Shown: positions 6,836-8,685 of the stretch, in pieces | Layout of the letters: each line of letters starts with the position of its first letter | How positions within the stretch are numbered: position 1 is the first letter of the stretch | Assembly: GCA_963825815.1 (NCBI GenBank) | Contig: CAWGVB010000002.1 | Location: 147,564 to 211,563, forward strand | DNA: 64,000 bases | From: an uncultured Gemmatimonadales bacterium | GTDB lineage: Bacteria; Gemmatimonadota; Gemmatimonadetes; Gemmatimonadales; GWC2-71-9 | Reading direction: 5' to 3' | Made by a program: the position numbers and the translations under genes | The notes under the pieces: generated by a model | Seen by the model: only the letters and a program-made list of their open reading frames with translations | Told to the model about the DNA's origin: nothing | Databases searched by the model: none

Positions 6836-6865
6836 TTGACACTCAGTGCTGAGCGCTCTTAGCTT
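6836..6865 (+). promoter_or_regulatory. Sigma70-type promoter of the attenuated leader
   Basis: TTGACA (6836-6841), 18-bp spacer, TAGCTT (6860-6865). Confidence 0.65.
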
Positions 6866-6895
6866 GCCAGTGAACGCTCATTCGTCGGAGAAACG

Positions 6896-6988
6896 ATGGA
6901 TCACGGTCTACCGCACTTCCTCCAGCTCAACCCCCGGCGGCACAACCGCGGGCTTCGCTGCGCACTGCGCAGAGACCAGGGAGCGTAG
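6896..6988 (+). CDS. Putative 30-aa leader peptide MDHGLPHFLQLNPRRHNRGLRCALRRDQGA
   Basis: GGAGA RBS 4 nt before ATG; TAG stop lies in the 5' arm of a predicted antiterminator; below the ORF-track size cut-off. Confidence 0.65.
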   Translation: MDHGLPHFLQLNPRRHNRGLRCALRRDQGA

Positions 6989-7055
6989 GCCTTCACTACA
7001 AGCTCGGACAGTACGTCGTGCACCAGGCCCGCTCCAGATGAGCGGGCTTTTTGTT
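6980..7055 (+). terminator. Attenuator: antiterminator (6980-6992 pairs with 7025-7035) versus terminator (7027-7055)
   Basis: Terminator GCCCGCTC-cagat-GAGCGGGC-TTTTTGTT; GGAGCG(ta)GGCCT can form 11 bp with AGGCCCGCTCC. Confidence 0.8.
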
Positions 7056-7077
7056 GAGCTTATACCTGGGAGTAGCG

Positions 7078-8685
7078 ATGACCAACCCAGCTGCGGGGAA
7101 TACCCCGCGGATTGTGGTTCATCCACCCGCCCTGCTGCCCTCGAATCCGGAACGCGGCCCCAGCGATGCTGAGCCGGACGCGGTGCCGCTCCTTCGGACC
7201 GAAGCCGGTGAGGCGCGGAAGCTGGGGACCCTGGTCGACGTCAGCCAGGCGCTTGCCGGACACCTGAGTCTGCCCGCAGGTCTCTCGGACGTCCTACTCA
7301 TTCTGGTCCGGCGCTGTTCGGTACTTCGGGGGGGCGTGGCTCTCTTGCACGAGCAAACCGGGGCCCTCGAGATCAGGGCCCAGGTCGGGCTGCGCCACGA
7401 TCGGGAGGGCGATTCCTACGGCCCCGCCCAGGGGGTCCTGGCAGAGGCGGCCACGACCGGAGAGACTCTCGTTATCGGCCGCCAGGTTGACGGGACCAGC
7501 GAGCACACCGCGCTGGCAGTGCCGATCGTGCTTCACCGGCGCTGCATCGGCTCGCTGATGGTCGAGGTGCGATTCCGTCCTGAGCGCGACGTGGATCGCC
7601 TGCTGAAATTTCTGCGGGTAGTGGCCTCCATGATTTCGCAGGCAGTCCGGATTCACCGGCTGCTCGAAGTGGAGCGGCAAAAGCTGGTCTCGGAAAACGC
7701 CCAGCTGCGGCAGGAGCTGCAGCAACGGAATCCCCTCTTCAGCCTCGTGGGAGCCAGCGGCCCCATGCGCCAGCTGTACGAATCGGTGGCACGGGTTGCT
7801 GGAGGTAACACCACGGTGTTGATCCGGGGCGAATCGGGCACGGGCAAGGAGCTAGTCGCCCAAGCGGTTCACCTGCACTCGCCCCGGGCCCAGAAGCCTT
7901 TCGTCAAGGTGAACTGCGCCGCCTTGCCCGAAACCCTGGTCGAATCCGAGCTGTTCGGCTACGAACGAGGGGCGTTTACCGGAGCGCAGCAGCGGAAGAA
8001 AGGACGCTTCGAGCTGGCCAACGGCGGAACCTTGTTTCTGGATGAGATCGGGGAACTGAGTCCGTCCACACAGGTGAAGCTGCTGCGGGTCCTCCAGGAG
8101 CGAGAGTTCGAGCGGGTGGGAGGAACGGAGTCGGTGCCGGTGGACGTGCGAGTGATTGCCGCCACCAACCGGGACTTGGAGAAAGCATTGGCCGACTCGA
8201 CCTTCCGGGAGGACCTGTACTACCGGTTGAATGTCTTCCCCATCTTCATCCCGCCGCTTCGCGCCCGCAAAGCCGACGTGCTTCCCCTGGCCGATCACTT
8301 CATCGAGAAGTATGCCCGGGAGCACGGGAAGAGCATCCGGCGGATCTCTACCTCGGCCATCGACCTGCTGTCCAGCTATCACTGGCCCGGCAACGTACGG
8401 GAGCTGGAGAACACCATCGAGCGAGCCGTTCTGTTGGCGGACGAAGAGGTCGTTCACGGTTACCACCTGCCGCCGACGCTCCAGACCGCCGATGCCACCG
8501 GCACAGTAGTGAGCACTTCGCTCGACAATGCGGTCGAGGCTTTTGAGCGCAGTCTGATCGAGGACGCGCTCAAGACCGCGCGGGGTAACCGCTCCAGGGC
8601 AGCGAGGCTCCTGGGCACGACTCAACGGGTCATCAGTTACAAGGTCAGGAAATACGGGATAGATCCGGCCCGACTGAAGTCGTAA
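7078..8685 (+). CDS. NifA-like sigma54 enhancer-binding protein (GAF-AAA+-Fis HTH)
   Basis: GAF-like N-terminus; [33 protein letters not shown]-terminal HTH; ATG at 7078 after GGGAG. Confidence 0.93.

Follow-up and report, generated by a model that had tools for sequence, protein, structure and literature searches.

The DNA analysed here is a 64,000-nucleotide stretch (the window) of contig CAWGVB010000002.1, from an uncultured Gemmatimonadales bacterium that is known from soil metagenome-assembled genomes (MAGs). At positions 6836–7055, upstream of a gene coding for a GAF–sigma54 transcription activator, it contains a leader whose anatomy and conservation in related genomes suggest that it is probably a ribosome-mediated (leader-peptide) attenuator, in which translation of a short upstream open reading frame (uORF) would be coupled to transcription and would gate the activator. 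In the mechanism that we propose, a conserved promoter would drive a short in-frame ORF whose stop codon lies inside or beside an RNA strand referred to here as segment 2. A ribosome reaching the end of the ORF would cover segment 2, and segments 3 and 4 would then form a terminator at which transcription stops; a ribosome held earlier would allow a helix between segments 2 and 3 to form before RNA polymerase has transcribed segment 4, giving read-through into the activator gene. The signal, we infer, would be the supply of charged tRNA-Asn, read at Asn codons 12 and 17 of the uORF, and because sister leaders precede gltB and a porin-like gene this signal may serve as a proxy for nitrogen status.

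Architecture of the leader

All of the elements of the leader are on the plus strand. A −35-like hexamer, TTGACA (6836–6841), is separated by 18 nt from a −10-like hexamer, TAGCTT (6860–6865). TAGCTT matches TATAAT at only three of six positions and a consensus promoter scan called no promoter; the hexamers count here because they are conserved in orthologous leaders, and not because of their score. A Shine-Dalgarno-like GGAG (6887–6890) is located 5 nt 5′ of the start of the 30-codon uORF (6896–6988, with the ATG at 6896 and a TAG at 6986–6988), which also appears in the list of open reading frames compiled for the window. The encoded peptide contains six Arg, five Leu (one of them encoded by CTA), three His, one Cys and two Asn residues. 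The two Asn codons, both AAC, are at codon 12 (6929–6931) and codon 17 (6944–6946), and are candidate regulatory codons on the basis of folding with a modelled ribosome and, for codon 12, of codon enrichment. In minimum free energy (MFE) folds a small hairpin, 6880–6887 with 6894–6901, would cover the uORF start and part of the GGAG.

The remainder of the leader can be described as four segments. Segment 1 (6905–6921) is predicted to pair with segment 2 in the ribosome-free MFE fold (14 pairs with 6978–6991). Segment 2 (6978–6992), identified by reading the sequence and by a pairing search, is the 5′ strand of the antiterminator and includes the uORF stop codon. Segment 3 (7025–7035) is both the 5′ arm of the terminator and the 3′ strand of the antiterminator (terminator scan and pairing search), and segment 4 (7040–7055) is the 3′ arm of the terminator together with its U-run (terminator scan). 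The antiterminator joins 6980–6985 to 7030–7035 and 6988–6992 to 7025–7029, giving an 11 bp helix with a 2-nt bulge that occupies the whole of the terminator 5′ arm. An independent pattern scan places the intrinsic terminator stem at 7025–7049, with ten pairs (seven of them G-C) and a 5-nt loop followed by TTTTTGTTG; the same scan reports six terminator-like sites in 4 kb, compared with 2.1 ± 1.5 in shuffled sequences. The U-run ends about 23 nt 5′ of the activator start codon (ATG at 7078), which is too near the terminator for the activator to have a promoter of its own, so that all activator transcripts must read through. A G+C-rich hairpin of eight pairs (7091–7110) inside the 5′ end of the activator coding sequence is also in the terminator-scan list, with a weak T-run only.

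This arrangement agrees, part by part, with the preliminary description of the locus, which had reported a TTGACA-18-TAGCTT promoter, a ribosome binding site and a 30-codon uORF at 6896–6988, a uORF stop codon within the 5′ arm of an 11-bp antiterminator (6980–6992 with 7025–7035) that is mutually exclusive with the terminator, and a strong terminator shortly before the activator ATG. The residue counts that it gave for the peptide (six Arg, five Leu including a CTA, three His), and the absence of any long run of a single amino acid, are likewise correct. No Rfam covariance model matches the window leader at threshold (the highest, at 20.5 bits, belongs to a model whose gathering score is 115), and Rfam searches of eight sister leaders gave no match except a tRNA.

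Conservation at orthologous activator loci

The activator is encoded in 49 of 103 genomes of the same genus (E ≤ 1e-150), and in none of 16 genomes sampled from two other families (E ≤ 1e-100). The identities of the orthologues are bimodal, with 23 close loci at 68% or above and 16 distant loci at 55–64%. The leader lies directly 5′ of the activator in 21 of the 23 close loci, with TTGAC(A), a spacing of 17–18 nt, TAGnTT, a short ORF and a terminator stem of the same sequence; conservation of the uORF and antiterminator, which the preliminary description had proposed as a check on its reading, therefore holds at these loci. In the remaining two (L028 and L005) the leader appears to be in front of an intervening porin-like gene. 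At L028 it is 886 nt 5′ of the activator, before a gene for a 281-residue signal-peptide protein with a weak match to Gcw_chp (TorF-like porin), and at L005 the contig breaks off inside the porin-like gene, and a second contig of that published genome ends in a matching leader with the gene start (L227). The leader is found in none of the 16 distant loci, the upstream regions of which are A+T-richer; one of them (L039) has a loosely similar hairpin about 200 nt upstream. The contiguous leader–porin–activator arrangement (L028, in G084), one of the direct leaders (L030, in G047) and one leaderless distant locus (in G003) rest on unpublished genomes.

There are several conserved features of the orthologous leaders. 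First, TTGAC(A) is kept throughout (21 of 22 by regular expression, and L030 by eye), and is followed at 17–18 nt by either TAGCTT or TAGATT. Second, GGAG is present 5′ of the ATG in five of the six leaders of the subclade to which the window belongs (A1-type), the sixth, L021, having GAGAG. Third, the uORF stop codon is 24–47 nt ahead of the terminator arm in all 22 activator-type leaders, and in most of them the U-run ends about 10–30 nt before the activator start. Finally, in 19 of the 22 the best pairing partner of the terminator 5′ arm overlaps the stop codon or is no more than 25 nt away. As far as the sequences go, it is this conservation, and not helix energy, that lifts the leader above chance.

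Repeats resembling TGCACAAT / TGCGCAAT, some of them inverted, are located next to or upstream of activator and porin promoters at many related loci; examples are found upstream of the −35 hexamer in L266, L208, L233, L006 and L032, and at the leaderless loci L007–L016. These motifs could be a transcription-factor site, and they are absent upstream of the window's own leader promoter. Near a contig end at L247 (G079:C62), a 17-codon-type leader has downstream of it, within about 200 nt, an ORF whose match to the activator is confined to the C-terminal part, an arrangement that could be a deletion or a misassembly. We also considered whether a 110–130-nt spacer in L002, L003 and L027 is a remnant of the porin gene, for which the support is weak (local alignments score 27 and 34, the highest shuffles 25 and 24). 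Among the matches listed by a metagenome scan with an alignment of the activator, which were of generic AAA+ patterns, the best locus has 62% identity and there were no new leaders.

Related leaders upstream of gltB and porin-like genes

The terminator stem sequence occurs once in the whole of its own assembly, and is thus not a common repeat. It is present in 78 of the 103 same-genus genomes, with a reversed-pattern control matching roughly a third as often, and 64 such places across the genus were inspected. About 38 of these are in front of gltB (the N-terminal GATase_2 domain encoded downstream is matched at E 2e-154) and eight precede Gcw_chp/TorF-like porin genes, one of which is above the Pfam cut-off and the others just below it. 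The search also recovers the known activator loci, together with L264 and two places at contig ends (L247 and L266), and nine places are chance matches inside genes or at unrelated terminators. At L249 (G009:C202) the same stem, with a poor T-run, is found before a Na+/H+ exchanger gene; this is doubtful and is not counted as a member.

The gltB leaders are closely similar to each other (34 were parsed and 33 aligned; L256, in which the first ATG gave a 5-codon ORF, was dropped). They have a TGCATAATAAT-type −10 with an ATG 5–7 nt later, an ORF of 21–24 codons, and a stop codon 21–27 nt before the stem. A strand of the form GGAGCG..CCGGG is immediately 5′ of the stop codon, and the last four codons are invariant in the 33-row alignment, wobble positions included. 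In other genera of the same family a homologous gltB leader carries the same conserved strand in a different reading frame, which indicates that the constraint is on the RNA and not on the peptide. As the terminator, the antiterminator strand and the layout are common to the gltB and porin leaders, the window leader is one member of a leader family. A pattern search across the order outside the genus gave matches at about the frequency of the reversed control, and our claims are accordingly limited to loci inspected by eye.

The window's own genome also has a gltB-type leader upstream of gltB, outside the window on contig C18 (minus strand, approximately 26350–26582). The ORF of this leader does not keep the frame of the 33 relatives, which may reflect an indel error, since gatB and asnB are split into several frames in this assembly.

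Probable translation of the leader ORF

A short ORF with start signals is present directly downstream of the promoter in all 22 activator-type leaders. There are three modes of start: a GGAG Shine-Dalgarno sequence with ATG, an AGGAGG-type Shine-Dalgarno sequence with GTG, and an ATG 5–7 nt after the −10, which would be leaderless. The patterns of change within these ORFs would fit a translated frame. First, the ORF itself is always kept, with peptides of 16–37 residues that are unrelated between subclades of the one orthologous locus. Second, among the six leaders of the window's subclade a 6-nt gap is in frame, and in three of the six the loss of 1 nt near the ORF end puts the stop at another TAG, 6 nt further on. 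Third, gaps within the ORF in the alignment of 33 gltB leaders are all of 3, 6 or 9 nt, and those after the stop codon are of 1–2 nt. Finally, in a pool of 63 leaders from published genomes, falling into 14 sequence groups, AAY triplets occur 108 times in frame as against 8 and 4 times in the other two frames, and the in-frame count exceeds both of the others in 13 of the 14 groups.

Asparagine codons and the sensed signal

In the same pool, Asn is above the genome's 2.16% in every one of the 14 groups (range 3.8–25%, group mean 9.5%). At least one Asn codon is present in 61 of the 63 leaders and at least two in 36, and among the porin leaders two have four and five Asn per 19 codons and two others have three. 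Lys, Ile, Phe and Tyr, which also have A+T-rich codons, show no enrichment in the 63 leaders, so that the Asn excess is not an effect of base composition. Of the 33 gltB leaders, 24 have AAT and two have AAC at the tenth codon ahead of the stop, AAT being the minor Asn codon (31% of Asn codons genome-wide), and the rare Leu codon CTT is found ahead of this conserved Asn in 16 and 10 of the 33. Across the leaders compared, in-frame Asn codons are the one enrichment that is shared by the whole family. The preliminary description had left the sensed signal open between an amino acid, a metabolite-dependent arrest and an antibiotic; the window's own peptide does lack a long run of one residue, but with the in-frame Asn enrichment of the wider family the signal is probably not wholly obscure.

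We tentatively suggest that the Asn codons may well be the sensing codons, and there are observations that tell against this assignment. The window leader has just two Asn among its 30 codons, a close relative (L020) and one gltB leader (L238) have none at all, and the conserved position in the gltB leaders is occupied by something other than Asn in seven of 33.

A ribosome-mediated attenuator that answers to a different signal must also be considered, this being either Cys (for the activator-type leaders) or a general slowing of translation, such as by starvation, ribosome antibiotics or nascent-peptide arrest. Cys makes up 3–18% of residues in the activator-type groups against 0.8% for the genome (one leader, L025, has none), TGY triplets in these leaders are in frame 38 times as against 12 and 7 in the other frames, the rare CTT codons just ahead of the conserved Asn in gltB leaders would be in keeping with slowing, and Cys-responsive leaderless short ORFs are known from mycobacteria, going by the available part of the preprint (10.1101/834739). 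However, the enrichment of Cys is limited to the activator-type leaders: in the gltB leaders Cys stands at 0.6% and TGY is mostly out of frame, several porin leaders lack Cys altogether, and the window leader has a single one, whereas Asn is the sole residue enriched in every group. An attenuator tuned to a signal other than Asn seems to us unlikely.

If the signal is Asn, its relation to nitrogen may be as follows. The amide nitrogen of Asn comes from glutamine. An asnS gene is present in all five genomes checked, and gatB and a glutamine-type asnB are also present in the genus; a direct link between Asn-tRNA and glutamine through GatCAB alone is ruled out by the presence of asnS in all five. 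The supply of Asn depends on glutamine through asparagine synthetase, and it is therefore plausible that Asn codons report nitrogen status. An Asn-rich leader was also sought before asnB paralogues, and all eight upstream regions examined lie within the coding part of the gene before, none having a leader. The broadest form of the proposal is that homologous leader ORFs in this Gemmatimonadales family constitute a ribosome-read nitrogen sensor, in which the charging of tRNA-Asn would govern read-through at three places, namely gltB, an outer-membrane channel gene and the NifA-like activator; we regard this as conceivable and rather doubtful.

Folding of the leader RNAs

The predicted structures of the window leader follow the proposed mechanism when a ribosome is modelled as a 28-nt mask in MFE folds. 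With no ribosome the fold contains the segment 1:2 helix and the terminator. Placing the A site on Asn12 or Asn17 abolishes the terminator, the 5′ arm of which then pairs upstream, and the fold masked at Asn17 contains the 6980–6992 / 7025–7035 helix. With the ribosome at the stop codon the terminator forms, and this is also true of 21 of 22 activator-type, 33 of 33 gltB-type and eight of eight porin-type leaders. In transcripts that lack the 3′ arm and have a ribosome on an Asn codon, upstream pairing of the 5′ arm is predicted for 18 of 21, 32 of 32 and five of eight leaders of the activator, gltB and porin types, respectively. In the gltB leaders, 99.4% of terminator, 97.8% of antiterminator and 84.8% of segment 1:2 positions are paired. 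The segment 1:2 helix is present in the MFE fold of the window leader and in the consensus of the 17-codon leaders, and was not recovered by RNAalifold on the six A1 leaders.

Helix energy was rejected as evidence, since shuffled leaders pair equally well. The window antiterminator has a predicted energy of −18.9 kcal/mol, which seven of 200 shuffles equal in this G+C-rich leader (z −1.75), and the fold of the whole leader has a z of −2.12, with three of 200 shuffles folding as well. Masked equilibrium folding was similarly given up as a general test, because it works for the window and gltB-type leaders and not for most others.

Several results weigh against the attenuator model. First, across the leaders the antiterminator energies are no better than those of shuffles (z −1.9 to +1.6; 7–189 of 200). 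Second, the preliminary description had proposed stem covariation as a check, and this yields no supporting compensatory changes: there are none within subclades of the activator-type leaders, and in the gltB leaders one pair is changed on both sides, no more than in shuffles, with a second count giving zero. In the gltB leaders this is because almost nothing varies, and invariant helices neither support nor oppose pairing. Third, the switch is seen in masked equilibrium folds of 29 of 33 gltB-type leaders and in only five of 22 activator-type and three of eight porin-type leaders; in the remainder the terminator always wins, and kinetics must be invoked. Fourth, in transcripts lacking the 3′ arm, a ribosome placed at the stop codon leaves the 5′ arm wholly unpaired in just nine of 22, eight of 33 and none of eight leaders of the activator, gltB and porin types, and the ribosome-free state is ambiguous, full-length folds giving the terminator and folds made before the 3′ arm giving the antiterminator. 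Fifth, all of the genomes compared are MAGs from an uncultured genus. Finally, three soil metatranscriptome runs contained 5–10% of the sampled words; their contigs matched the conserved AAA+ part and the neighbouring receiver gene and left 6867–7514 uncovered, so that the comparison is uninformative and should not be read as evidence of absence. On these folds, the attenuator model is compatible with the anatomy of the leader, but leans on kinetics.

The failure of most activator-type leaders to lose the terminator unaided in equilibrium folds would fit a quite different arrangement, in which a trans-acting factor, either an RNA-binding antiterminator protein or a small RNA, recognises the GGAGCG / CGCUCC region, with the ORF being incidental or modulating. 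The 10-bp stem and the antiterminator strand are also near-invariant in more than 60 leaders, in three gene contexts and several genera, as would be expected of a shared site for sequence-specific recognition. Such invariance also follows, however, from the need for one strand to pair with two partners, and there is no match to known protein- or ligand-dependent RNA families. Moreover, if translation were irrelevant, the conservation of frame, the restriction of AAY to the frame and the fixed place of the stop codon beside segment 2 would be left unexplained, and we consider a trans-acting factor to be quite improbable. Least probable of all is an independently functioning small gene, the product being a micro-protein or a terminated small RNA and the leaky terminator giving a low constitutive level of activator: the leader does have its own promoter, ribosome binding site, ORF and terminator, and other bacteria offer precedents for trans action by terminated attenuator RNAs and by leader peptides (peTrpL/rnTrpL, according to the portions of those accounts available), but the peptides of the one locus share no similarity between subclades, the conserved bases are in different frames in different genera, conservation is centred on the strands able to pair with the terminator, and a trans role of the terminated RNA would in any case be compatible with attenuation.

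The activator gene and its surroundings

The gene downstream of the leader (7078–8685, plus strand) encodes GAF, sigma54 AAA+ and HTH_8 domains by Pfam. The preliminary description had called it NifA-like, which holds for the GAF/AAA+/HTH architecture and not for membership of the nifA family itself: TIGR01817 (nifA) is its best NCBIfam match, at 479.5 bits, and is below the cut-off of 528.85. On these sequence comparisons it is NifA-like in architecture, and we do not file it as NifA. Scanning the window with a sigma54 promoter consensus gave 19 matches against 24.7 expected, and thus no signal.

Divergent from the activator are minus-strand genes (4550–6727) for a receiver-only response regulator (6362–6727), a 173-residue ORF with no family match in a domain search, and a Cache-HAMP-GGDEF diguanylate cyclase. 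Some of the orthologous loci (L006 and L027) likewise have the receiver gene on the divergent side. The trigger factor gene tig is at 12996–14351 in the window, about 4 kb downstream of the activator, and tig (followed by clpX in L269) is also downstream of the leader–porin unit in L269, L270 and L273, so that the loose synteny of the neighbourhood extends to loci without the activator or without the porin gene.

Comparison with known systems and significance

Leader-peptide attenuation is a textbook mechanism of amino-acid biosynthetic operons in Proteobacteria and a few other phyla. The window leader resembles trpL, hisL, leuL, thrL and pheL (Rfam Trp_leader RF00513 and relatives) in having a promoter-proximal ORF, an intrinsic terminator, and an antiterminator that shares the terminator 5′ arm. 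As in these classical attenuators, a finishing ribosome would cover the upstream strand, a segment further 5′ is predicted in some of the leaders to pair with the antiterminator strand, and codons for one amino acid are enriched across the family. The view in the preliminary description that the geometry is that of amino-acid attenuators thus finds support, by comparative anatomy. There are also clear differences. First, there is no similarity in sequence or to covariance models, with the window leader scoring 17.7 bits against Trp_leader (gathering score 41). Second, the leaders are in Gemmatimonadota and precede a sigma54 activator gene, gltB and a porin-like gene, and not the biosynthetic operon of the sensed amino acid. 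Third, the codon thought likeliest to be read is that for Asn, which the window leader has only twice, and many members of the family look leaderless.

Two other types of leader invite comparison. In mycobacteria, as far as the available part of the preprint describes (Canestrari et al., bioRxiv 10.1101/834739), pausing at the Cys codons of polycysteine leaderless short ORFs sets downstream expression, and the loci that share this signal are termed a 'ribulon'. The Gemmatimonadota leaders are similar in being short, often apparently leaderless ORFs at the heads of operons, with one codon signal at several loci. They differ in that a stalled ribosome in the mycobacterial case, by the same partial account, unmasks a downstream ribosome binding site and so exerts translational control, whereas here there is an intrinsic terminator, and in that the window leader has one Cys and no Cys tract. 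The second type comprises attenuators that respond to antibiotics or translation stress, such as bmrB-bmrCD (PMC4191407) and the msrD and mef/mel leaders (PMC4335068). These too, in the portions of the two papers available, have a leader ORF with a terminator and antiterminator, read-through upon ribosome hold-up, and non-biosynthetic targets. The targets there are resistance transporters or ABC-F factors of Firmicutes, and the leaders are described as having no amino-acid bias, in contrast to the family-wide in-frame Asn bias seen here; this bias, together with the gltB sister locus, points to a metabolic signal.

According to the available text of a 2010 survey (PMC2965389), leaders of this kind had at that time been recorded solely from Proteobacteria and Actinobacteria, save for the atypical ermC leader and a reported case in Firmicutes. 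A limited search of the open literature brought up no account of leaders with Asn codons, of attenuation at gltB or of any attenuator from Gemmatimonadota, which is not proof of absence. The leader described here would place the logic of attenuation in Gemmatimonadota, an abundant but poorly studied soil phylum, and ahead of a transcription activator. A small set of loci (gltB, the porin-like gene and the activator) shares one terminator and one apparent codon signal. For annotation of these genomes, short ORFs upstream of gltB and of the activator are probably to be taken as regulatory leaders and not as hypothetical proteins. If the Asn codons are the sensor, they would provide a simple translational readout of nitrogen status that is passed on to sigma54-dependent genes; and if the reading of the family as a nitrogen sensor is true, a translation-coupled attenuator would sit atop a sigma54 cascade, replacing or backing up the usual protein sensors of nitrogen.

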